A DNA stretch of 64,000 nt from Candidatus Doudnabacteria bacterium (GTDB taxonomy: Bacteria; Patescibacteriota; JAQUNI01), in contig JBAZQX010000005.1 of assembly GCA_041644975.1 (NCBI GenBank), forward strand, positions 13,068 through 77,067, read 5' to 3'. The translations under genes and the position numbers were made by a program. Position 1 is the first letter of the stretch. Each line of letters starts with the position of its first letter. Below, in pieces: positions 6,994-60,217 of this stretch. Below the pieces are notes generated by a model. The model made no database searches. It was not told the origin of the DNA and was given only the letters and a program-made list of their open reading frames with translations.

Positions 6994-7026
6994 ACCCCGT
7001 TAGAGAACAAGATTCTCTAACGGGGT
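6994..7026. repeat. palindromic repeat family 2 (ACCCCGTTAGAGAAC...GTTCTCTAACGGGGT), short copy
   Basis: Perfect hairpin; related copies at 7978-8090, 22684-22716 and 46812-46888. Confidence 0.8.
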
Positions 7027-7117
7027 TTACAAATTCTAGTCTGATGTTCTTATTATATACTGCATTGCCAATATTATAAAATCGCTCTTTTTTATGATTT
7101 TTGTTATAATAATCCAT

Positions 7118-7725: not shown

Positions 7726-8457
7726 ATGATGAATTCTGATCAAAAAACAATTAAAACATACAATAAAATCGCCAAAGAATACGCCGCCCGCGGTTATAGT
7801 AACCCGCTTTTTTGGCACAGGGAATTTAAAATTTTTCAAAAATTGATTTCGGGGAAAAAGATTATAGACATTGGATGTGGGTCGGGCAAAGATGCATTGC
7901 TGTTTATAAAGAACAAATTCGATTATATTGGCATTGATGCCTCTTCCGGATTGCTTCGCGAAGCGCGCAAGTTCATAAACCCCGTTAGAGAACCTCATTC
8001 TCTAAACCCGTCTAGAAATCTATTTCTAACGGGGTCGGCTTTAAAAAATTCTAACCACCAACTAAAGTCGGTGGCTTTCTCTAACGGGGTAAAAAGCGGC
8101 AAATTTATTTTGATGAATTTCTACAAATTAAATTTTCCCCGAAATCATTTTGACGGCTTTTGGGCTGCTGCTTCCCTCCTGCACATCCCCAAACGCCGCG
8201 TCGCCAAGGTCCTTCGCGCCATTAGAAAAATTATTAAACCCCAAGGCGTAGGATTTATCGCCCTCAAAGAAAAAAGACATCTTGACGAAGGCATCATCAA
8301 AGAAAAAAAACACGGCGGGATTGAGCGGTATTTCGCTTTTTACACTAAATCAGAATTCAAAAAAATTTTAGAACAGAACGGATTTGAAATTTTAAAAAAC
8401 CATATTCGTCAAGAAGAAGATACAAATTGGCTTTGCTATTTTGTGAAGAAAATATAA
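7726..8457 (+). CDS. class I SAM-dependent methyltransferase carrying an in-frame repeat-derived insertion
   Basis: Motif I IIDIGCGSGKDA and post-I IGIDAS. A 38 aa insert is encoded by the family-2 palindromic element. Confidence 0.65.
   Translation: MMNSDQKTIKTYNKIAKEYAARGYSNPLFWHREFKIFQKLISGKKIIDIGCGSGKDALLFIKNKFDYIGIDASSGLLREARKFINPVREPHSLNPSRNLFLTGSALKNSNHQLKSVAFSNGVKSGKFILMNFYKLNFPRNHFDGFWAAASLLHIPKRRVAKVLRAIRKIIKPQGVGFIALKEKRHLDEGIIKEKKHGGIERYFAFYTKSEFKKILEQNGFEILKNHIRQEEDTNWLCYFVKKI
7978..8090. repeat. palindromic repeat family 2, long composite copy inside methyltransferase CDS
   Basis: aaccccgttagagaacctcattctctaaacccgtctagaaatctatttctaacgggg...ctttctctaacggggt. Near-identical to 46812-46888. 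Confidence 0.8.
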
Positions 8458-9186: not shown

Positions 9187-9213
9187 TAGAGACAGGTTTT
9201 AAACCTGTCTCTA
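9186..9213. repeat. palindromic repeat family 1 (GTAGAGACAGGTTTTAAACCTGTCTCTA)
   Basis: Perfect hairpin. Its first base is the last base of the Nudix stop TAG. Confidence 0.85.
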
Positions 9214-12849: not shown

Positions 12850-13722
12850 TTATTGTGATTCCACTACAATCATACCAGAGATCATCCCCATCCAACAACT
12901 AAATTGATATTTTCCTGGTGTTGTTGGGGTGAATTCTTTCACGCTTACTTGACCAGGAGTAAGACTAATCTGGCCGGTAAATAAACCATTGGCAATAATA
13001 GCATTTGTGCAACCGCTTGTACCCGTGTCGGTAATTTCCCATCTTACCGGAATCCCTGCTTTTAGCTTAAAATAATTTGGTTCATACCCCGACGAAGATG
13101 CATCCATCTTGATAATTTGCTTAGTGGGGGTTGGAGGAGGAACGGTCTCTGTTTTTATTCCCCCATTCTGATTATTTGGTATAGAAGGTTGAGGTGGAGA
13201 TTGGGTTGGGTTTCGACCCTGATATTGATCGCCAGCGATTTGATCTTGGTTATTTGTGGTTCCTTTATTTGGTAGTACGACGTTGCCATTATCTATCTGC
13301 GGAGATTTAGGTTGTGCTGGAGGTGTGGAGTAATTAGAATCTTTATTTTGACTTCCTAAGGTTTGATTGTTTTGCAAAGGACAACCAAGTAAATCTTGCA
13401 ATTCTTCAAATGTTCTGTAACCCTCATAAACCTGTCCATTAATGGCAAATGCGGGAACACCTGTAAATTTATGCTTTACAGGGCCAATAGCAGCATTGAT
13501 TTTATTTATTTTAATTCCCAGAGCTTCAATTTTATTAATTGTTCCTTCTCCCTTTACTCTGTTGCACCATTCGCATTGGTTAAGATAATAGAATGTTATT
13601 TCTTTCGTCTTACATTGGGGTGCTGCGTTTAACTGGGAATTTGATTTTTTGGATTTAGTTAAAATCCAAATTCCACCCCCCAAAATTATAATCACTGTAA
13701 AAATTAGAATAATTTTTTTCAT
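12850..13722 (-). CDS. membrane-anchored thioredoxin-like (CxxC) protein with C-terminal cupredoxin-like putative metal-binding domain
   Basis: N-terminal TM. CEWC motif in a glutaredoxin-like segment. Pro/Gln-rich linker. The C-terminal domain YxPNYFKLKAGIPVRWEITDTGTSGCTN...FSCWMGM is duplicated in the gene at 14372-16093. Confidence 0.55.
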   Translation of the reverse strand: MKKIILIFTVIIILGGGIWILTKSKKSNSQLNAAPQCKTKEITFYYLNQCEWCNRVKGEGTINKIEALGIKINKINAAIGPVKHKFTGVPAFAINGQVYEGYRTFEELQDLLGCPLQNNQTLGSQNKDSNYSTPPAQPKSPQIDNGNVVLPNKGTTNNQDQIAGDQYQGRNPTQSPPQPSIPNNQNGGIKTETVPPPTPTKQIIKMDASSSGYEPNYFKLKAGIPVRWEITDTGTSGCTNAIIANGLFTGQISLTPGQVSVKEFTPTTPGKYQFSCWMGMISGMIVVESQ

Positions 13723-14371: not shown

Positions 14372-16093
14372 TCATTGCGCTCCACAACTTGTGCCACTCC
14401 CGCCACAACCACATCCCTTAGCTCCAGAAGGAATAATCTGATTATTATCTGTCGCAGAGCCAGGAACAGAAGGTTGTGAATTTACCCCCTGATCCACAAC
14501 CTCAATCACTCCCGATACCATTCCCATCCAGCAACTAAATTTGTATTTCCCGGACTTTGTGGGTGTGAATTCCTTAATGCTTATCTTCCCAGGGGTTAAA
14601 TTAATTTGGCCATCAAATAGACCTCGGGAAATAACGGCATTTGTGCAGCCACTTGTGCCAGTATCTGTGATTTCCCACCTTACGGGCACCCCAGATTTTA
14701 CCTTGAAATAATTTGGTTTATATCCAGAAGAAGACGCATCCATTTTGATAACTTGTTTGCCATTAACCAAAGGTGGTAGTCCGCTATCGCTGCTAGAGGC
14801 ACTCGTAGATTGGGAAGAAGTAGCTTTTACATCACTAAAACTAAAAAATCCCAAGACATTCATTTGGGAATTAATATTATAAAAAGCAAAAAATAAAACC
14901 AAAACACCCGCGACCTTAAGGAACTTTTCTGACCGCCCTGGTTTTTGAAAAAATTTCACGCTTGATAAACCGATGGTTAGTAGCATTGGTAATGTCCCAA
15001 GCGCGAAAAAGAGCATAATTAATCCTCCTTGAATGGGGTTTCCCGATATCAGGGCAATGCTTTGAGCAGTAATAGTGAAACCGCAGGGCAAGAAAAAAGT
15101 AAAAGCTCCCATTAAAAAAGGCATATAACGTCCTTGGAAATTTTTTTCATCAGCCACATATCTGGTGATGAATTTTGGCATTGTAAACTGAAACCTGCGC
15201 AAGGCCTTTACGCCCAACATTTGCAAAGCCAGCACGAACATCATTAAGGAAACTGCTAAGACGAGGACAGAGGTAAATTTGAGCGATAATTGTAATTTAC
15301 TACCCACTGCACCCAGTACTGCGCCTAAAATCGTATAAGAAATGATCCTACCGATATTGAACATCAAATGAGGTCGAAGTTTTGTGAAAAACGAATCCTT
15401 TTCTGAATATGCTTCCAGCCATTGTTTGGACATTGAAAGGACCAAACCGCCTACGAGCGCTGCACAACTTGAGACTCCGGCCAAAATACCGAAAACAAAA
15501 AAAGCAGGCAAAGAAGATGAAGAGTTAATATTAATCAACCCCGATAAGCCTGATTTTTTTAAAATTAGAAAACCGATAATAAGAAGGAGGGCGGCTCCAG
15601 CGATCGTGAAAAAATCTTTTACTTTTGATCCCTTTGCCTCTATGGGTTGGTCAAAAAAAATATAGTTGTCTTTTTGAAAAATTTTATTTAACTTTTCTGC
15701 TGAAGATCTTTCACCGGTATATTTAATAAACACTTGGCCTTTGTTAGTTGACGCTTCTACAGCTTCTATTGAAGGCAAACTTAATAACTTTTTTTCAATC
15801 AAAATTTCACAAGAAGCGCAATGCATTCCTTGAACAAAGTATACGTGTTCCTGACTAGTACTTTTTGCTGAAACAGCAGATTTTTCTCTAATAACATATC
15901 CCAATTTCTGAATTGCTTCAAAAATTTTATCTTGAAAAATTATTGTATCATCAAATTCTACCCGAGTTTCCCCACTTGCCTCATTAATATTGATATCTTT
16001 AACACCTTTTAAGACATCAACTTTTGTTTCAACTAGACTTTTATCATTAGGAGAATGAATACCCTCAATGTGGATTTTTATTGTTTTCAACAT
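14372..16093 (-). CDS. HMA domain - DsbD_2-like membrane domain - cupredoxin-like domain protein with Cys-rich tail
   Basis: GMHCASCEILIEKKL (HMA). TM Cys motifs SSCAALVGG and FLPCGFT (DsbD_2/CcdA-like). C-terminal domain about 85% identical to that of 12850-13722. Tail GCGCGGSGTSCG. Confidence 0.6.
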   Translation of the reverse strand: MLKTIKIHIEGIHSPNDKSLVETKVDVLKGVKDININEASGETRVEFDDTIIFQDKIFEAIQKLGYVIREKSAVSAKSTSQEHVYFVQGMHCASCEILIEKKLLSLPSIEAVEASTNKGQVFIKYTGERSSAEKLNKIFQKDNYIFFDQPIEAKGSKVKDFFTIAGAALLLIIGFLILKKSGLSGLININSSSSLPAFFVFGILAGVSSCAALVGGLVLSMSKQWLEAYSEKDSFFTKLRPHLMFNIGRIISYTILGAVLGAVGSKLQLSLKFTSVLVLAVSLMMFVLALQMLGVKALRRFQFTMPKFITRYVADEKNFQGRYMPFLMGAFTFFLPCGFTITAQSIALISGNPIQGGLIMLFFALGTLPMLLTIGLSSVKFFQKPGRSEKFLKVAGVLVLFFAFYNINSQMNVLGFFSFSDVKATSSQSTSASSSDSGLPPLVNGKQVIKMDASSSGYKPNYFKVKSGVPVRWEITDTGTSGCTNAVISRGLFDGQINLTPGKISIKEFTPTKSGKYKFSCWMGMVSGVIEVVDQGVNSQPSVPGSATDNNQIIPSGAKGCGCGGSGTSCGAQ

Positions 16094-21150: not shown

Positions 21151-21237
21151 TTTACCAAACTAACCTACCGAAACCCTGCAAACATTATCAAATTCAAAGA
21201 ACAAAAAAACCGGCTTAGTTAGCCGGTCTAGTTTCTA

Positions 21238-21268
21238 GTGTAAGACAGGTTTTAAACCTGTCTCTACT
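21238..21268. repeat. palindromic repeat family 1
   Basis: gtgtaagacaggttttaaacctgtctctac. Confidence 0.8.
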
Positions 21269-21405
21269 AAAAATCAGACCGGCGAAAGTCGGTTATAAAA
21301 CCAAAAACCAAAAAAGAAATTATTTTGTGAAATATTATTTTCCATAACTCTTAAGAAGCATTATAACTCACCATAAAATATTGTCAAGGACTTCTTTAAA
21401 TGAAA

Positions 21406-21563
21406 CTCCACGGGCTTAGCCTACTCCGCCGAAGTGGTCTTCGGCTGCGAAGGCCGGACACCCGTGGCATCTCTTTATAATAAAATTTCGTGGAGCGCCC
21501 ACCTGCTCACAAGCCTGCCCACCAGTCCGCCAAAGGCGGGCAGGCTTTCTGGTGCGTTGGGTC
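21406..21563. repeat. GC-rich structured intergenic element, copy 1 (candidate ncRNA)
   Basis: Shares the modules ctccacgg, gcttagcctactccgc, ttcggctgcgaaggccgg.cacccgtgg, catctctttataata..atttcg.ggagc and ctttctggtg.gttggg with 27181-27341, in a different order. Multiple nested GC stems. Confidence 0.45.
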
Positions 21564-21687
21564 AAATCTTGATATTGATTTTTTTTCTAACCCAAAAATC
21601 ATCCTGCAAAAACAGTAAGACATTGCCCGACCCCGGATCAACCATAAAAGATATACTCACCATAAGCCCACCCTTTATTTATTTTTT

Positions 21688-21762
21688 CTAGCGTTTTCCT
21701 TTGCGCGCAGTTTTCTTCTTCGTGACTTTGCGCTTCTTTATAGCTTTCTTTTTTTTTGCCAT
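21688..21762 (-). CDS. 24-aa highly basic small ORF (MAKKKKAIKKRKVTKKKTARKGKR) with strong SD
   Basis: GGAGGTGA lies 6 nt before the ATG. Below the ORF-track size cutoff. Confidence 0.3.
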   Translation of the reverse strand: MAKKKKAIKKRKVTKKKTARKGKR

Positions 21763-22131
21763 TTGCGATCACCTCCCTTCTTATTATTTTTTATCTTTGC
21801 GACAAAAAATAAAAAAATAATTTTAATCAAAAGGATTTCTTTCTTCAAAAACTTCTCCTCAAAAATTTTCTCTTTCTCGCCAAAATTTTTTCTGAAACCC
21901 GCCAAAGTTTTTTTTAAAAAAATTTAGGCGGGAAATTAAAAAAACTTTGGCAGGCTTTTTTCTTTTTATTTTCATTTCCTCCTTTGATGTATTTATTATA
22001 CAACAAAAAAAAAGTTTTTAAAATAAAAAATTGTGGATAAACTATAAAAATCAAAAATGTAAAAATCAAAAAACAAAATGAAAATGTAAAATGAAAAAAT
22101 TTTTTAATTAAATAAAAACCCGAAGAAAAAA

Positions 22132-22683: not shown

Positions 22684-22716
22684 AACCCCGTTAGAGAACG
22701 AAGTTCTTTAACGTGG
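22684..22716. repeat. palindromic repeat family 2, short copy
   Basis: aaaccccgttagagaacgaagttctttaacgtgg. Confidence 0.7.
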
Positions 22717-22807
22717 CGAATCACCTGCTATCCCAATTATGCGGGATAACTGCTCGGGTACACTAGGTACCGCGAAGAGGATCGCTCTTTGTGAGCTTTG
22801 ATGATTG

Positions 22808-27118: not shown

Positions 27119-27180
27119 AATTTTAGAAAATTTAATAATTCATCTTTTTAAATTCTAGCATAAAAACTACGAAAAGTGAA

Positions 27181-27341
27181 GCTCCACGGACTCACGCCCG
27201 TGGCATCTCTTTATAATAGGATTTCGCGGAGCAAAACCCCTCACCAGAAAGCCACCATTCATCCACGGGTTTAGCCTACTCCGCTTAAAGCAGCCTTCGG
27301 CTGCGAAGGCCGGGCACCCGTGGCTTTCTGGTGAGTTGGGC
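27181..27341. repeat. GC-rich structured intergenic element, copy 2 (candidate ncRNA)
   Basis: Same modules as 21406-21563, permuted. Includes the 9+ bp stem accagaaag/ctttctggt and the UUCG tetraloop hairpin gcagccttcggctgc. Flanked by the direct repeat AATAATTCATC. Confidence 0.45.
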
Positions 27342-27720
27342 AAAATAAAAAAAATTAGAGGGTATTATGAACGAATAATTCATCCCCTCTCTATCTAGCC
27401 ATCTTATAGCCTACTTCCTAATCTCTATGGTTTTGACCATCCACAAAACCATATCCCCGAAAAATTTTACGGATTGATTAGGACACTTGTTATAGATGGC
27501 GAGTGCTAGAAGCCGCGGCAGCAACAGCGATGGTATTACCGCGCCCACGACCAACAAGAGGACTAACATTCTACCACCCCCAATACTAAGACACTAATGA
27601 ATAACCGGTCGAATTATACTTGTATTATAAAGTGTAAAATTTAATAAATCAATAATTATATTAATTTTAAATTTTAAATCAAATCTTAATTTTTAATTTT
27701 AAAACAGTCGAGTTTTAAAA

Positions 27721-30203: not shown

Positions 30204-30302
30204 TTCATAATTCCTGCCTGCCCGCCGACCTGTCCGCAGAAGTCCGCCTTTGGCGGACGAAGGAGGAAGCCTTGGCATAGGCGGACCTGCCCCGCACCGA
30301 AT
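30204..30302. repeat. GC-rich structured element upstream of comEC
   Basis: attcataattcctgc, then gtccgc...gcggac and ccgcctttggcgg hairpins, ending in ccccgcacc. Confidence 0.5.
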
Positions 30303-32804: not shown

Positions 32805-33267
32805 AATTATAACTTATAACTTATAACTTGTAACTCAAGACTTCTGAAAAATTTGAGTTACGACGGGTGATGGATTTTAAGTTTTGAAATTATCCCCCAA
32901 AGCATTGCTCCTATTTTTTCAGCCAGATTGATTAATTCACAATATCGCTCTTTATTTAAATATTGCCTGTGATGAGAAAAATAGATAAGATACTTACTTT
33001 CTTTTAATGATCCATATGAAATTTCTAAAAAGTTCCTTAAAGTATTTCTGCTCTGTCGGGCATAACCTTCTATGTAATTCAAAATCACAGACAAAGCCGC
33101 TCTCCGTAATTGCGATATTAAACCAAATTGCTCTATCTTAGGGAAATCTTGAGTATAATCATAAACTTTATTTGCATAAACATCCATAAACTTCTTTAAT
33201 TCCTGATGAAATTGATTTGTCCGTTCCATTCTCTCTTGGGTTATAAGTTACAAGTTATAAGTTACAC
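32805..33267. mobile_element. four-helix-bundle gene cassette bounded by inverted repeats (TTATAACTTATAACTTGTAACTCAAG ... TTATAAGTTACAAGTTATAAGTTACAC)
   Basis: Left arm 32805-32840 and right arm 33241-33267 are reverse complements flanking the single gene 32858-33229. Confidence 0.5.
32858..33229 (-). CDS. four-helix-bundle protein (23S rRNA intervening-sequence protein family, TIGR02436-like)
   Basis: LISQLRRAALSVILNYIEGYARQS, a match to the 23S rRNA intervening-sequence four-helix-bundle family. Confidence 0.7.
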   Translation of the reverse strand: MERTNQFHQELKKFMDVYANKVYDYTQDFPKIEQFGLISQLRRAALSVILNYIEGYARQSRNTLRNFLEISYGSLKESKYLIYFSHHRQYLNKERYCELINLAEKIGAMLWGIISKLKIHHPS

Positions 33268-46811: not shown

Positions 46812-46888
46812 AACCCCGTTAGAGAACCTCGTTCTCTGACCCCGTTTAGAAATTTATTTGTAACGGGATGAACTTTCTCTAACGGGGT
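46812..46888. repeat. palindromic repeat family 2, 77-nt copy
   Basis: aaaccccgttagagaacctcgttctctgaccccgtttagaaatttatttgtaacggg...ctttctctaacggggtaaaa. Confidence 0.8.
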
Positions 46889-50002: not shown

Positions 50003-50338
50003 TCAAACTTCGGACACTTTCTCTTCCGCCTTCCAGCCACCTAACAAATGGAGATGCAAATGAGAAACCCGCTGGAGCTGACCTCCATTAAAAATAAGTT
50101 TGTAACCATCGCTAATTCCTTGATCCCGCGCCAACTCCTTCGCCTTCCAAACTAACTTCCCGATTAAAGCAATATCCCCCTCTCCCAAAGCCTGGAGCGA
50201 TTCTAGGTGTTTCTTAGGCACAAACAAGATATGCACCGGCGCTTTAGGATTAATATCGGAAAAGGCGACCATATCTTGATCCTGGAACATAATCTCCGCT
50301 TTTTGTTTACCCACGGCGATATCGCAAAAAATGCACAT
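50003..50338 (-). CDS. HIT (histidine triad) family hydrolase
   Basis: N-terminal CIFC; HLHLHLLGG triad. Confidence 0.85.
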   Translation of the reverse strand: MCIFCDIAVGKQKAEIMFQDQDMVAFSDINPKAPVHILFVPKKHLESLQALGEGDIALIGKLVWKAKELARDQGISDGYKLIFNGGQLQRVSHLHLHLLGGWKAEEKVSEV

Positions 50339-50482
50339 GGAAATAATTTTAAATTCTAAATTTTCAATTTTAATTCAATTTTAAAATCCTAATTTTAAAT
50401 TTTAAAACCAAGGGAAAGAAGAAAGGGTTTTAAAATTAAAAAATTTAAAATTTGGATTTGATTTAAAATTTAGAATTTAAAA

Positions 50483-51835
50483 TTATTTCTTCCTCATCTT
50501 CGCCAGCCTCTTCTTTACCTCGCTGACGATTTTATCTCTGTTAATAAGTTCCTGCACTCCCGTTTCCATATCGCGTAAAAGAATTGTTTTCTCTAAAGCT
50601 TCTTTCTGACCTAGAATTAAAGTGACTTTAACACCCAGCCGGTCCGCTACTTTGAGTTGAGACTTAAGGCTCCCTCGCGAAAAGGATTCCGAAACAATAA
50701 TGCCGTTTTGGCGAAACTCTTCAAAGAGCACCAAAGCTTTCCTTTTGGCAAGTTCCCCGAGTTGCGCCAGAAAGACGTAGATTTTACGCGAGCGAGGAGG
50801 CTCAATTTTACTTTCCATAAGTTGCATGATAATTCGTTCCATACCGCAGGAGAAACCCACAGCCGGCGTTAATTCGCCTCCTAAATCTTCCACCAAATTA
50901 TCATAACGTCCGCCGCCGCCCAAAGCGATTTGTTTTCCTTCTTCCTGCCCCTCTGCCTTCCCGGGCCAAATTTCAAAAACCGTCTTGGTATAATAATCCA
51001 AGCCTCTTACTAATTTAGAAGTCAAACTGTAGACAATCTCTAATTCATCAAGCTGTTCTAAAACTTCTTTTAGGTGGTCATGGCATTCCTCGCACAGAGA
51101 ATCAATCAAAGCCGGGGCATTATTAGCTAGCCTCTGACATTTTTCCTCTTTACAATCTAAAAGCCGCAAGGGATTGGTTTTGAGCCGTCTCTTACAATGG
51201 GCGCAAAGTCGGGAGGTTTGCCCCTGATAATAACTTAACAAAGTCTCTTTATATGCTGGCCGGCAGGCCACGCAACCTACACTGTTGATTTTAATATTGA
51301 AACTGGACAATCCCAAAGCTTTTAAGATATTACTGGCGACTAAAATCATTTGAGCATCCGAGGTAGGCGAAGCTGACCCTAAAATCTCAAAACCAAATTG
51401 ATGGAACTCCCTAAAACGTCCTTTCTGGGGCTGGTCATACCGAAACATAGGACCAAAATAATAAAGCTTCAACGGTTGAGGCTTATTCACAAGTCCATTT
51501 TCAATGTAGGCGCGGGCGATCCCCGCCGTGTTTTCCGGCCGCAGAGAAATACTGTCTCCTCCCTTATCCTTGAAAGTGAACATCTCCTTCTCCACAATAT
51601 CCGTTCCGCTTCCCACTCCCCGCACAAAAATATTTGTGTCTTCAATAATTGGCGTGTCAATACGGCTAAAACCATATTCAAATGCTATCTTTCTCACCGT
51701 GTCCCGCATAAAATCCCAATAAGGCTGATCATCAGGTAAGATATCTTTTGTTCCTTTAACCGCCCGAAATAAAACTCTGCGACGCAAAGGGAGGGGTTCA
51801 TCTTCGCTCAAATTTTGTTTCTTAAATCGTGGCAT
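50483..51835 (-). CDS. hisS: histidine--tRNA ligase
   Basis: Class II aaRS motifs and a HisRS anticodon-binding C-terminus. Confidence 0.9.
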   Translation of the reverse strand: MPRFKKQNLSEDEPLPLRRRVLFRAVKGTKDILPDDQPYWDFMRDTVRKIAFEYGFSRIDTPIIEDTNIFVRGVGSGTDIVEKEMFTFKDKGGDSISLRPENTAGIARAYIENGLVNKPQPLKLYYFGPMFRYDQPQKGRFREFHQFGFEILGSASPTSDAQMILVASNILKALGLSSFNIKINSVGCVACRPAYKETLLSYYQGQTSRLCAHCKRRLKTNPLRLLDCKEEKCQRLANNAPALIDSLCEECHDHLKEVLEQLDELEIVYSLTSKLVRGLDYYTKTVFEIWPGKAEGQEEGKQIALGGGGRYDNLVEDLGGELTPAVGFSCGMERIIMQLMESKIEPPRSRKIYVFLAQLGELAKRKALVLFEEFRQNGIIVSESFSRGSLKSQLKVADRLGVKVTLILGQKEALEKTILLRDMETGVQELINRDKIVSEVKKRLAKMRKK

Positions 51836-55443: not shown

Positions 55444-58400
55444 TTGTCAACGAGAAAAATGACAAAAATTGAATATTGGACTGGCGTGCCGCAAACGGCT
55501 AAACCTTATGTCATCGCCACCTCCCCCCTTACGCGAAAAGGGGCTGTTTTGCTATGCACTAAAAATCCGAAAACTTGGCTTACCCAAATCCAATTTTGGC
55601 AAAAAAATCTAAATGCGGTAGAGGCAGGTTTAAAACCTGTCTCCGCAATCCTGGAATCAAACGCTGATGTTTTAATAAAAAATTATCCAGTCTTCTCCCG
55701 CCTCAAGGATAAAGAACCGATGTTGGTTTTAGCGCAAACGGAAATCCTCGCTCAAAAATTTCCCTCGCCAAAAGAATTAGAATCCAAAAGCTTGCGGCTG
55801 ACAGCAGGACAGACTCTCAACTTGCCCAAACTGATCGGTTTTCTTTTATCCGCCCATTACCAAAAAGAAAGAGCTGCTCATTCTCCAGGCGCCTTTGCCA
55901 AGCGCGGAGGGATTATTGATATTTTTCCTCTTTTGAAAGACCATCTCATTCGCTTAGAATTATTTGGCAATAAACTGGAAAGCATAAAGATTATCAATAA
56001 CAATAAAATAATTGAACAACCGAACAATGTTACCATCCCGCCTTTAAAAGTCGCGAATCCAACGGGTACTATTTTAGACTGGCTGCCATCTCTTGTTACC
56101 ATCATTCTGGACGAACCCGAACCCGAATCAAAAGAAAGGCTGAAAAAATTTCCTTTGATTGTTTTTGAAGCCTTCCCTTGCGCAGGGCCCGAAAATGTAG
56201 TCCGATTCAGCTTTCAAAATCCTCCCCTAGCCTTGGGTAATCTTCAAACATTAAACAACACTCTCCAACAATTCAGAAAAAAAAAGTATCAAATCTTTAT
56301 CGCCAGCAAGAAATTGCCTGCTATAGAGACAGGTTTTGAACCTGTCTCCGCAATGATAACCCCTTTCTCACTTTCCGCCGGTTTCCAAAATCAAAAAGCA
56401 AAAATTATTGTCTTCACGGATACGGAAATCTTCGGTTTCCGCAAGCAAAAGCGCCGCGAACGTCGTTTTCAAATGGACGCTGAACCTCTGAACGCCCTCA
56501 CGCCCGGAATGTATATCGTGCATATTGACCACGGTATCGGCAGGTTTGCTGGAATGGTTCAAAAAGAGATTGACCACCTCGTAAGAGAATATTTTTGCTT
56601 AGAATACGCTTATAGCGATAAGCTTTTTCTGCCTATTGATCAGGCGGATAAAATCACGCGCTATATTGGGCGGGAAAATCCCGTCATCCACCGCTTGCAT
56701 GGCGGCATTTGGTACCAAATCAAAAAACAAGTTCAGGTTGACGCTAAAAAAATAGCCGCGGAACTTTTAAAAATTCAAGCATCACGCCAAACTGAAAAAG
56801 GGTTTATTTTTACGCCTGACACTCCCCGCCAAAGCACGCTGGAAGCGTCCTTCCCCTACTCCGAGACGCAAGACCAGGAGAAAGCAATTTGCGAGGTAAA
56901 GGCTGATATGGAAAGCGCTCGCCCGATGGACCGTTTAATCTGCGGCGATGTGGGTTTCGGCAAAACCGAAGTCGCCATCCGCGCCGCCTTTAAGGCGTGT
57001 GAAAATAAAAAGCAGGTCGCGCTCCTCGCGCCCACCACCATCCTCGCCCAGCAACACTTTGATACTTTTAAAGAAAGATTGCAATCATTGAATGTGAGGA
57101 TTGGTCTCCTGTCGCGCTTCCAATCCAAAAAGCGCCAAAAACAAACCTTAAAAGATTTAAAACGAGGAAAAATAGACATTGTTATCGGCACCCATCGTCT
57201 CCTCTCTCGCGATGTTTATTTTTTTAATCTAGGTTTGATTATTATTGATGAGGAACAACGTTTTGGCGTGCGCCATAAGGAAAAATTAAAATCGTTGCGA
57301 CCTAACCTTGATATTCTCACCCTTTCCGCGACGCCTATCCCGCGCACCCTGAACTTTACTCTTTCTGGCCTCCGCGATATAAGCAGTATTCAAACCGCGC
57401 CCGCCGGCCGCAAAGCAATCAAGACCTATGTGCATATTGCCGAAAACAAACTCATCCGGAAAGCGATTCGCCGAGAGCTTGAAAGAGAAGGACAAGTGTA
57501 TTATCTTTATAATAAAGTGGAGACGATTCTGCCTTTCGCGAAAAAAATCCAAAAACTTGTTCCCGAAGCCAAAATCGACGTCGCCCACGGTCAGATGAAT
57601 GAACGCGATTTAACCCGCGTAATGCGCCAATTTGATGAAGGAAAAATCCAAATTCTGATCGCCACCACCATTATTGAAAACGGGTTGGACCTCCCGAACG
57701 TGAATACGCTCATTGTGGATAATGCGCCGCAATTCGGCCTCTCCCAGCTCTATCAAATCCGCGGCCGCATTGGCCGAGGAATACGCCAAGCTTACGCCTA
57801 TTTTTTCTATCACCAAGAAAAGCTTCCAGCAGCCGCGAGCAAAAGATTAGAGGCGCTCCTTTCCATGCAGGAACTCGGCTCGGGATTTAACATCGCGATG
57901 CGCGATCTGGAAATCCGAGGATCGGGCAATATCTTGGGTCGTGAACAATCAGGAGATGTCAATTCTATTGGATTATATTTGTACACCAAGCTTCTCGCCC
58001 AAGCAATTCAAGAATTCAAAACCGGCAAGGTTCCTGAACCAATTTTGGAAGTCTCTATTGATCTTCCTCTTCCGGCGCGTTTACCTCAACCTTTCATTCC
58101 CGCCGAGAAAAAACGGCTTTCCCTTTACCACCAACTAAGCGGCATTAATACTTTTGCCGATCTTCGCTGTATCAAACATAAAATTGAAAAAACGTATGGT
58201 CCCTTACCAAAGGAAGTTAGAAACCTCTTCAAGATTCTGAAAATAAAAATTCTCGCCCGTGCCGCAAGAATAAAAGCTATTGATACAATCAAGGTTTGGG
58301 GAATTGATGGCAAGTCCAGACAACGAATAATCTTAGACTTTGCAGAAAAAATGGATTGGGATAAAGTAGACGAACTTTTAAAACATAATCCACATTGGAT

Positions 58401-58988: not shown

Positions 58989-60079
58989 CCACTGACGCGA
59001 GATACTACCACGCCTTCAATTTGATTCCCAACATCGGGCCATTAAAGTTTAAAAAGCTTATTGCTTATTTTTCGGATTTAGAAAAAGCCTGGTTCGCGCC
59101 CTGCGCGGAAATCATCAGAAGCGGCATTTCGGAGGAAGTGAGCCAAAGAATCTGCGCGGAACGCCAGCGCATCAATCCTGAAACGGAATGGCAAAAATTA
59201 ACAGCGCAGGGGCTTCAAGCCATCACCATTCAAGATAAGGATTATCCCCCTCTCCTCAAAGAAACTTATGACCCGCCGGCAATCTTGTATCTGCGTGGTC
59301 AAATTACAAATCCCAACCAAACCTCTTTAAGCGTAGTCGGCACGCGCAAACCCACATCTTACGGCCGAGAAGTAACATTTCAACTGGTAGGTCTGCTTGT
59401 CCAAGCCCAAATCACCATCGTTTCCGGATTGGCTTTGGGCATTGACGCCCTTAGCCACCAAGCCTGTTTGAATTTTGGCGGCTACACCATTGCGGTTTTG
59501 GGCGGAGGCGTAGACGATCCTTCAATTTATCCACGGGCGAATTGGCAGCTTGCCCAAAACATTATCCAAAAAGGCGGCGCTCTGGTCTCCGAATACCCGC
59601 CCGGCACCAAACCGTTAAAACAAAACTTTCCGCAACGCAACCGCATTATCTCTGGTCTCTCTAAAGGAGCTCTGATTATTGAAGCAGGCGAAAAAAGCGG
59701 CACTTTAATTACCGCGCGCGCCGCTTTAGAACAAAACCGCGAAGTCTTCGCCGTGCCCGGCTCCATTTATAACCCTTGTTCGCGCGGGACTAATTACTTG
59801 ATTAAAATAGGCGCTAAACTGGTAACGAATATCCAAGATATTTTAGAAGAATTGAATTTAAGTGTCTTACAGGAAATCCCGAGAAATCAAAAAATCACCC
59901 CCGATAATCCCGAAGAAGCTTTGGTACTGCAACATCTTTCCGGCGAGCCAATTTACATTGACGAATTAGCCAAAAAAACAAAACTCGCGCCGGCTAAGAT
60001 ATCCACAACATTGACAATCTTAGAAATGAAAGGTATTGTTCGCAATATTGGAAGCGCGAATTATGTGATAGCAAGGTAA
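58985..60079 (+). CDS. dprA: DNA processing protein DprA (Smf)
   Basis: Rossmann-like DprA core VVGTRKPTSYG...GLALGIDA...AVLGGG...VPGS. Confidence 0.85.
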   Translation: MTTDARYYHAFNLIPNIGPLKFKKLIAYFSDLEKAWFAPCAEIIRSGISEEVSQRICAERQRINPETEWQKLTAQGLQAITIQDKDYPPLLKETYDPPAILYLRGQITNPNQTSLSVVGTRKPTSYGREVTFQLVGLLVQAQITIVSGLALGIDALSHQACLNFGGYTIAVLGGGVDDPSIYPRANWQLAQNIIQKGGALVSEYPPGTKPLKQNFPQRNRIISGLSKGALIIEAGEKSGTLITARAALEQNREVFAVPGSIYNPCSRGTNYLIKIGAKLVTNIQDILEELNLSVLQEIPRNQKITPDNPEEALVLQHLSGEPIYIDELAKKTKLAPAKISTTLTILEMKGIVRNIGSANYVIAR

Positions 60080-60217
60080 ATTTTAAATTCTAAATTTTAA
60101 ATCAAATCCAAATTTGAATTTCTTAATTTTAAAACTTTTTTTTCTTTGTCTTAAAATTTAAAATTCAAGCATTTAAAATTGATTTAAAATTAAAAATTTA
60201 GAATTTAAAATTATTAT

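Follow-up and report, generated by a model that had tools for sequence, protein, structure and literature searches.

A GC-rich block at 21406-21563 is probably one copy of a mosaic palindromic mobile repeat whose core hairpin recurs across about nine phyla

The GC-rich block at 21406-21563 of the 64,000-nt stretch of DNA analysed here (the window) is probably one copy of a non-coding, non-autonomous, mosaic palindromic mobile repeat and not a noncoding RNA (ncRNA) gene. The element is repeated and of mosaic build, shows insertion polymorphism at both of its layers (scaffold and core), has spread across phyla, and has in-frame copies within genes, whereas no element-encoded gene adjoins it. Since the core is near-identical in at least nine phyla and sits both in hairpin loops and in frame in essential genes, it looks like selfish DNA. 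The initial annotation had proposed a novel ncRNA gene, which is at odds with the absence of the element from a sister strain, its multiple copies across about nine phyla, the in-frame copies in genes, and an unbiased orientation.

The block measures 158 nt with a GC content of 60.8%, in agreement with the ~160 nt and ~60% GC first estimated, and its partner block at 27181-27341 has 57.8% GC. The genome had been taken to be ~35% GC, whereas the mean of the window is 41.2%. Delimited as in Table 1, the two elements are each ~160 nt long with ~58% GC. The five modules said to be shared by the two blocks correspond to exact same-strand blocks of 8, 14, 19, 22, and 12 nt; by our own arithmetic, the chance expectation of a single shared 14-mer between two 160-nt stretches is ~2e-4. 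The order of the modules does differ between the copies as had been described, but they are not freely shuffled. The scaffold is otherwise collinear, and the impression of shuffling comes from the core and its carrier hairpin being placed differently in the two copies. Hairpin formation was borne out, as both strands of both copies fold more stably than dinucleotide shuffles, with -65.9 kcal/mol (z -2.4) for the + strand and -77.0 kcal/mol (z -4.7) for the - strand of copy 1, and -72.8 kcal/mol (z -5.4) and -76.2 kcal/mol (z -4.4), respectively, for copy 2.

Table 1. Features of the two window copies, exact blocks shared by them, and in-frame core copies in genes of other genomes
Feature	Position or locus	Strand	Length	Details
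Copy 1, mosaic scaffold element	21400..21561	no strand		ends by homology to copy 2; 59% GC
Core module, copy 1	21419..21458			covariance model match 61.7 bits, E 2e-13
Carrier hairpin, copy 1	21408..21467			CCACGGG (21408-21414) / CCCGTGG (21461-21467), core in loop
Scaffold linker CATCTCTTTATAATAAAATTTCGTGGAG, copy 1	21468..21495			22-nt block identical in copy 2
Right domain, copy 1	21497..21561			nested arms GCCTGCC/GGCAGGC, CACCAG/CTGGTG, TCCGCCAAAGGCGG hairpin (21526-21539), end GGCTTTCTGGTGCGTTGGG
Copy 2, scaffold element	27176..27339	no strand	164 nt	ends from empty-site comparison
Core module, copy 2	27274..27314			covariance model match 51.5 bits
Shared exact block CTCCACGG	copies 1 and 2	same strand	8 nt	
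Shared exact block TTAGCCTACTCCGC	copies 1 and 2	same strand	14 nt	
Shared exact block CTTCGGCTGCGAAGGCCGG	copies 1 and 2	same strand	19 nt	
Shared exact block CCCGTGGCATCTCTTTATAATA	copies 1 and 2	same strand	22 nt	
Shared exact block GGCTTTCTGGTG	copies 1 and 2	same strand	12 nt	
Class-I aminoacyl-tRNA synthetase	L011			in-frame core
Triosephosphate isomerase (TIM)	L086			in-frame core
IspE/GHMP kinase	L050			in-frame core
FliG	L028			in-frame core
HI0933-like flavoprotein	L071			in-frame core
GT9 glycosyltransferase (heptosyltransferase)	L057			in-frame core
TPR membrane protein	L090			in-frame core

On the + strand, both copies start with RTGAARCTCCACGG, end with GGCTTTCTGGTGMGTTGGG, and contain CCCGTGGCATCTCTTTATAATRRRATTTCGYGGAGC; copy 1 reads ATGAAACTCCACGG ... 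GGCTTTCTGGTGCGTTGGG. The core consensus is an imperfect hairpin of ~40 nt, GCCTACTCCGCC..GGCTGCGAAGGCCGG+R, which can be written as GCCTACTCCGC..hairpin..GCGAAGGCCGG, and a covariance model of it, run with filters off, matches only the two cores within the window. The core of copy 1 consists of GCCTACTCCGCCGAAGTGGTCTTCGGCTGCGAAGGCCGG and a 3' purine and forms an imperfect hairpin that reads CCGGCCUUCGCAGCC..GGCGGAGUAGGC on the - strand. It sits in the first CCACGGG/CCCGTGG hairpin of the scaffold. In the scaffold linker of copy 1, CGTGGAG (21489-21495) is able to pair with CTCCACG (21406-21412). In copy 2, flanked by the terminator of a 52-aa ORF on one side and the ndk promoter on the other, the loop of the first hairpin (27184-27203) is empty and the core occupies the second hairpin (27263-27323), between CCACGGG (27263-27269) and CCCGTGG (27317-27323). 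There, the core hairpin is nested in the long arms CTCACCAGAAAGCCAC (27240-27255) and GTGGCTTTCTGGTGAG (27320-27335), and the surrounding CATTCATCCACGGGTTTA..CCCGTGGCTTTCTG is common to loci of Binatia and Deltaproteobacteria. The TCCGCCAAAGGCGG(A) hairpin in the right domain of copy 1 recurs at 30242-30257 and at three other loci (L006, L068, and L110). A third GC-rich intergenic block, at 30213-30300 between ComEC and a T4SS-like ATPase, contains the hairpin TCCGCCTTTGGCGGA, which is present in copy 1 (21526-21539) and at the same three loci, which belong to other phyla.

Comparison of filled and empty sites demonstrated that the scaffold is an insertion. The ndk protein beside copy 2 is identical on four contigs, and on two of these, L120 (GCA_028717685.1) and L122, with an identical ndk and closely similar flanks, the 164 nt of copy 2 (27176-27339) are cleanly absent. 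On the - strand, the empty site reads AATTTTGC^TTTTTGTAG and the filled site TATTTTGC[CCAAC...GCTTCAC]TTTTCGTAG. This comparison revealed no target-site duplication at copy 2, and the ends of the element, RTGAARCTCC and CTGGTGMGTTGGG, are not terminal inverted repeats. The core is an insertion separate from the scaffold. A relative (L132) with 92% identity in its GCS2 protein has, at the copy-1 site, the scaffold's right part (GCTCCACGAAATCCCATTATAAAAATAGTGATCCCGTGGAGCTTCAC) without the core and without the 5' arm of the carrier hairpin. The two scaffold sites, with flanks TTTGC^ and TTTGA^, define no fixed target tetranucleotide. Upstream of the 52-aa ORF, the near-identical sister strain L120 carries a different palindromic insertion (2440-2620; GTCATTGCGAGGAG...CTCCTCGCAATGAC), which is absent from the window, and similar arms flank the cores in L044, L045, and L099.

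The surroundings of copy 1 contain other structured and short coding features. Just downstream of it, on the - strand of 21200-21387, a perfect sigma-70 promoter (TTGACA-16-TATAAT, 21387->21360) is followed by a structured stretch of ~150 nt and then by an intrinsic terminator (21229->21207 and a T run). This candidate small RNA is conserved in L132 and partly in L133, and its Rfam matches are weak and sub-threshold only. A 24-codon, highly basic ORF (MAKKKKAIKKRKVTKKKTARKGKR) lies at 21688-21762 on the - strand behind a strong ribosome-binding site, GGGAGGTGA; the gene caller of one assembly called a 44-aa ORF in another frame, at about 21638-21772, instead. The window also holds other repeats. 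A palindrome family, ACCCCGTTAGAGAAC..GTTCTCTAACGGGGT, is found at gene ends (6994-7035, 7979-8020, 22685-22726, and 46813-46854), with its arm ACCCCGTTAGA also in other CPR genomes (L011, L012, and L110). The hairpin AGACAGGTTTTAAACCTGTCTCTA (family D10) is repeated at 9190-9213, 21243-21266, 55622-55645, and 56327-56350 and is identical at two sites, and AT-rich blocks of AATTTTAAATTTT-type repeats occur, direct and inverted (families D2/D3 and I1-I4), at 27647-27705, 50318-50491, and 60077-60215. Two neighbouring ORFs with cupredoxin-domain matches share a 256-nt direct repeat of 76% identity (12867-13122 and 14503-14758). Within 32810-33264, inverted repeats of 31 nt, TAACTTATAACTTATAACTTGTAACTCAAGA, enclose a gene for a four-helix protein of the 23S-rRNA-intervening-sequence/bAvd-like kind (32858-33229, - strand); gene and repeats may constitute a small mobile cassette. 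Outside the window, ~8 kb from its position 1 on the source contig, a gene of 419 aa (L136:17971-19230) that matches reverse transcriptase (RVT_1) weakly adjoins two large unannotated proteins.

The core extends far beyond the window. A scan of species-representative genomes with the pattern GCCTACTCCGCN{6,30}GCGAAGGCCGG returned at least 119 loci, against a chance expectation of ~2 for uniform composition (our own arithmetic); four of them (L053, L081, L085, and L091) are probable chance matches in high-GC DNA. The covariance model gave 114 matches in 100 sources, including about a dozen diverged copies. Among the matches listed, the hosts belong to about nine phyla or lineages: Nitrospirota, Planctomycetota (Brocadiaceae, Pirellulales, and Phycisphaerae), Verrucomicrobiota, Desulfobacterota (including Oryzomonas), Binatia, Alphaproteobacteria, Armatimonadota, TA06, and Patescibacteria, with several CPR lineages. 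Rickettsiales are not among the core hosts listed, and one of the listed matches is from an isolate, Oryzomonas japonica Red96. Again among the matches listed, a genome has up to 13 loci (Oryzomonas SPRUCE 227), followed by eight (Nitrospira 8_1_Oct) and four elsewhere, and there are 19 occurrences of the exact 41-mer GCCTACTCCGCCGAAGCAGCCGCTTCGGCTGCGAAGGCCGG, spread over several phyla; the identical 41-mer was found in Nitrospirota, Planctomycetota, Patescibacteria, and Alphaproteobacteria. We did not find the core in PLSDB plasmids, INPHARED phages, or E. coli genomes, where the BLAST low-complexity filter could hide a match, and IMG/VR gave only four matches. The scaffold pattern TTTATAATNNNATTTCGYGGAGC produced nothing but two chance matches in JGI metagenomes, and the scaffold is therefore lineage-specific. 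Literature searches with DNA and peptide strings returned nothing relevant to the core, and by keyword we retrieved just general papers on REP/RAYT and on Geobacter genomes, in none of which the element is described.

At these loci the core behaves as a discrete inserted unit. The unit is the core plus one purine, which follows in 99 of 99 distinct copies, and the insertion sites have neither a duplication nor a consensus beyond an A/T bias at position -1. In the Nitrospira scaffold, ATGAAGCTCCCCGCAGCA^AGCTGCGGGG...CGCCTT^CATCCCCGCAGCA^AGCTACGGGG...GGAGAATAA, the core can be at any of three sites (^) while the remaining sites are empty, which is the same pattern of alternative sites as in the window copies. 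Complementary arms surround the core in 64 of 115 copies, compared with 17-24 of 120 when the partners are shuffled. These flanking hairpins also exist in empty form in Nitrospira and in L038, L046, and L072, the latter three having the carrier hairpin of copy 1 with an empty loop (CCACGGGTTTACACCCGTGG), so the stems are targets and not evidence of a selected RNA structure. In Oryzomonas, the core is central in a ~170-nt element with inverted ends, whose arms are swapped between copies. Orientation relative to the flanking ORFs is unbiased by crude ORF calls (16 same/same, 15 opposite/opposite, 13 convergent, and 10 divergent).

The core was also found in frame within seven ORFs with Pfam domain matches in low-GC genomes (Table 1). 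Relative to solved homologue structures, it forms an 11-residue insertion in IspE and an extra loop segment, opposite an 8-residue gap, in TIM. The sense strand is the GCCTAC strand in all seven genic copies, none of which has a closing stem, and the cores are read in three phases, as AYSAEAAASAAKAG, PTPPKRLRRP, or SLLRRSGCEGR. The core is 32, 35, 38, or 41 nt long in 100 of the 119 copies listed, which, with the purine, usually gives a unit divisible by three; its design is GCN-periodic as well, and stop codons are absent from all sense frames. Such a design might stem from selection within coding regions or from coding DNA as its source. In high-GC genomes (L059, L115, and others), long ORFs that run through the core were set aside, as they look spurious and the real genes begin after the core. 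The synthetase frame that hosts the core in a Sungiibacteriota MAG (L011:1118-4759) also has a His_Phos_1 histidine-phosphatase domain in the middle of the frame.

Could the core instead act as RNA? Hammerhead and twister ribozymes often ride on mobile DNA, and a new small self-cleaving ribozyme or protein-binding module might do likewise, with a functional core and variable closing stems. The core is indeed conserved, the closing stems vary in sequence from genome to genome, the core is multi-copy and spread across phyla like small ribozymes, and both window copies fold more stably than shuffles. The strands are not equivalent either: read in the GCCTAC orientation, the flanking stems contain 37 A.C against 13 G.T mismatches, and the complementary strand folds slightly better, being the more stable one in 62 of 103 copies under RNA parameters and in 77 of 103 under DNA parameters. 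Together, these data imply that the hairpin is favoured on the CCGGCC..GTAGGC strand (the - strand of the window), which could reflect single-stranded DNA or RNA. We nevertheless consider a structured RNA unlikely. No Rfam family reaches its gathering score in the window and none, all ribozyme classes included, matches either element at E<=10; together with ARAGORN, which predicted neither a tRNA nor a tmRNA in the window, this shows that the block matches no known RNA family; the initial annotation had been unable to place it among tRNA, tmRNA, SRP, RNase P, or 6S RNA. The covariation that it had suggested looking for is scarce: four of 13 core pairs never vary, and both sides have changed in only nine cells within four pairs. 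These few double changes, in the inner hairpin, speak for an RNA. Because the pairs are mostly invariant, it is the sequence that is conserved rather than the pairs that covary, which fits a recent spread. Insertion into existing hairpins explains the variable closing stems, of which empty versions exist, whereas the genic copies lack a closing stem and are kept in frame. The multiple-of-three length of the unit points to translation and not to removal at the RNA level, the orientation to genes is unbiased, and we found neither a promoter nor a terminator framing the window copies. By eye, HDV-like, hammerhead, and twister ribozymes, the K-turn, loop E/sarcin-ricin, integron attC sites (RYYYAAC/GTTRRRY), and SRP domain IV, which shares GAAGCAGCC, were also considered and rejected, as their pairing patterns or consensus sequences do not fit.

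A cis-acting transcription element kept by the host, such as a terminator, an insulator, or an mRNA-stabilising hairpin copied by recombination and not by transposition, would suit the position of both window copies, each of which separates a finished transcription unit from the promoter of the next, and REPs have been reported in such roles (PMC3733652). The last bases of copy 2 even supply the -35 hexamer of the ndk promoter (27152-27180, - strand; TTCACT-17-TGcTAGAAT), and the first hairpin of copy 2 followed by the T-rich tail CATCTCTTTA is terminator-like on the + strand. This sole terminator-like match is, however, on the strand opposite to all neighbouring genes, a sister strain lacks the element at the ndk site, and copies within coding sequences and in all orientations misfit a dedicated terminator, which makes a cis-acting element maintained by the host rather improbable. 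It is very improbable that a small protein is encoded by the scaffold. In favour of one, ATGAAG or GTGAAG is conserved at the left end, the Nitrospira scaffolds form a 47-codon ATG...TAA frame kept open by the cores, with ATG and GTG alternating at the left end and TAA and TGA at the right end, and the core units are usually multiples of three. Yet the two window copies are in different frames after the first hairpin with stops at unrelated places, an inconsistency for which we reject this reading; the core frame differs between sites, a ribosome-binding site is not consistent, and the sequence is dominated by palindromes. The mobile-repeat reading, which we prefer, also has observations against it. 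Two cores within ~74 kb of the source genome (the window and 10 kb beyond) are a low copy number for an active repeat. No transposase was found by Pfam among the 40 window ORFs, no candidate mobilising gene in the 10 kb beyond, and none near the at least 119 loci, where all-against-all clustering of 2781 ORFs gave only generic families and no recurrent protein family near the core. A strongly selected cellular function might instead account for 40 nt being near-identical across phyla, the strand asymmetry of 37 versus 13 would also be explained by an RNA role, and the GTAG is placed within the 3' arm, whereas canonical REPs have it 5' of the hairpin.

Under the mobile-repeat reading, the two layers would move independently. 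A lineage-specific scaffold of ~160 nt would insert between transcription units without target-site duplication or terminal inverted repeats. The core of about 33-42 nt (GCCTAC...GGCCGGR), an imperfect hairpin with fixed mismatches, would drop into the loops of existing hairpins, beside hairpins, or into coding sequence. As a multiple-of-three unit without stops in the sense frames, the core could persist even inside essential genes. It might move as single-stranded DNA, folded into a hairpin on which an HUH/Y1-type enzyme (RAYT or IS200/IS605 TnpA-like) acts in trans, a step that is conceivable but doubtful. We raise it because several traits resemble those of the substrates of such enzymes (RAYTs and IS200/IS605 TnpA; PMC6006769, PMC3733652): target-site duplications and terminal inverted repeats are lacking, the mismatches of the hairpin are fixed (on the favoured strand, U.U, G.A, and A.G), hairpin loops are the preferred sites, and the strands are asymmetric. 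Effects on the host, for instance a block to read-through or to antisense transcription, would presumably be secondary. We tentatively suggest that the core might be a previously undescribed, horizontally spreading, frame-neutral palindromic mini-element that colonises hairpin loops and essential genes in at least nine phyla including CPR, moved by a trans-acting enzyme or by a common host process. If so, few known mobile DNAs would be as small.

What surprises most is the identity across phyla, from Nitrospira and anammox planctomycetes to CPR bacteria, together with fresh insertion polymorphisms. As a rule, REP and RPE elements are specific to a family and bound to a lineage. The near letter-for-letter identity of the core implies either very recent transfer of gene-less DNA between phyla or a shared machinery that recognises one hairpin. 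The stop-free, multiple-of-three unit in housekeeping enzymes shows how essential proteins can gain peptide segments from selfish DNA. In CPR genomes, GC-rich islands within AT-rich intergenic DNA are a standard lead for new ncRNAs, and the core family is a recurrent false positive in such searches that should be masked.

Several known systems share features with the element. An Rfam-type structured ncRNA would likewise be GC-rich, strongly folding, intergenic, and recurrent, but the element has no Rfam match, conserved synteny, or fixed orientation, shows almost no covariation, and has copies inside ORFs. The initial annotation had raised the possibility that the copies are fragments of a known IS or MITE; they do appear to belong to a mobile, MITE-like repeat, but no described IS or MITE was found as its parent. 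Like IS200/IS605 PATEs and MITEs, the element is non-autonomous, lacks an ORF, is polymorphic for insertion between strains, and has subterminal hairpins, and like IS200/IS605-type elements it has neither target-site duplications nor terminal inverted repeats. IS200/IS605-type elements insert 3' of a fixed tetra- or pentanucleotide; here a conserved target could not be defined from only two scaffold sites (TTTGC^ and TTTGA^), the core sites are without consensus, and we saw no parent IS. Classical MITEs have terminal inverted repeats and target-site duplications, both of which are absent in the window, although the ~170-nt Oryzomonas element has inverted ends.

Rickettsia palindromic elements are palindromic selfish DNA of about 100-150 bp, confined to Rickettsia, and are found in intergenic regions as well as in frame in protein-coding genes, including housekeeping genes. 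To our knowledge, no mobilising enzyme is known for them. The core resembles these elements, also cited in PMC3733652, in the in-frame insertion that adds a short peptide segment, seen here in seven Pfam-matched ORFs, and is set apart by its size of 33-42 nt and its host range of many phyla including CPR.

The element is comparable to the REP/BIME elements of enterobacteria. Like REP, BIME, and REPIN sequences, which RAYT (TnpA-REP) transposases mobilise, it consists of short GC-rich imperfect palindromes, is multi-copy, mostly extragenic and sometimes in genes, forms mosaics with other short motifs, lacks terminal inverted repeats and target-site duplications, and has G.T pairs in its stems and a GTAG tetranucleotide (PMC3733652, PMC6006769). 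REPs are short repeated palindromes of 20-40 nt and mainly extragenic, and the core, with 32-42 nt, at least 119 loci, and up to 13 loci per genome, is of this kind. The differences concern the foot of the hairpin, the enzyme, the site, and the host range. REPs have an unpaired GTAG (or CGTC) at the 5' foot, whereas the GTAG of the core is inside the 3' arm (GGAGTAGGC; ..GGCGGAGTAGGC), after the hairpin on that strand; CGTAGC is present in some core-flanking stems. REPs have a cognate single-copy RAYT (Y1/HUH) gene with the repeats on its flanks, whereas we found none among the 40 window ORFs or the recurrent ORFs of the at least 119 loci. The core, unlike REPs, prefers the loops of other hairpins, and REP families are lineage-specific and mostly inherited vertically, whereas the core is near-identical across about nine phyla. 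The element is an unusually widespread variant of the REP/BIME/RPE kind.
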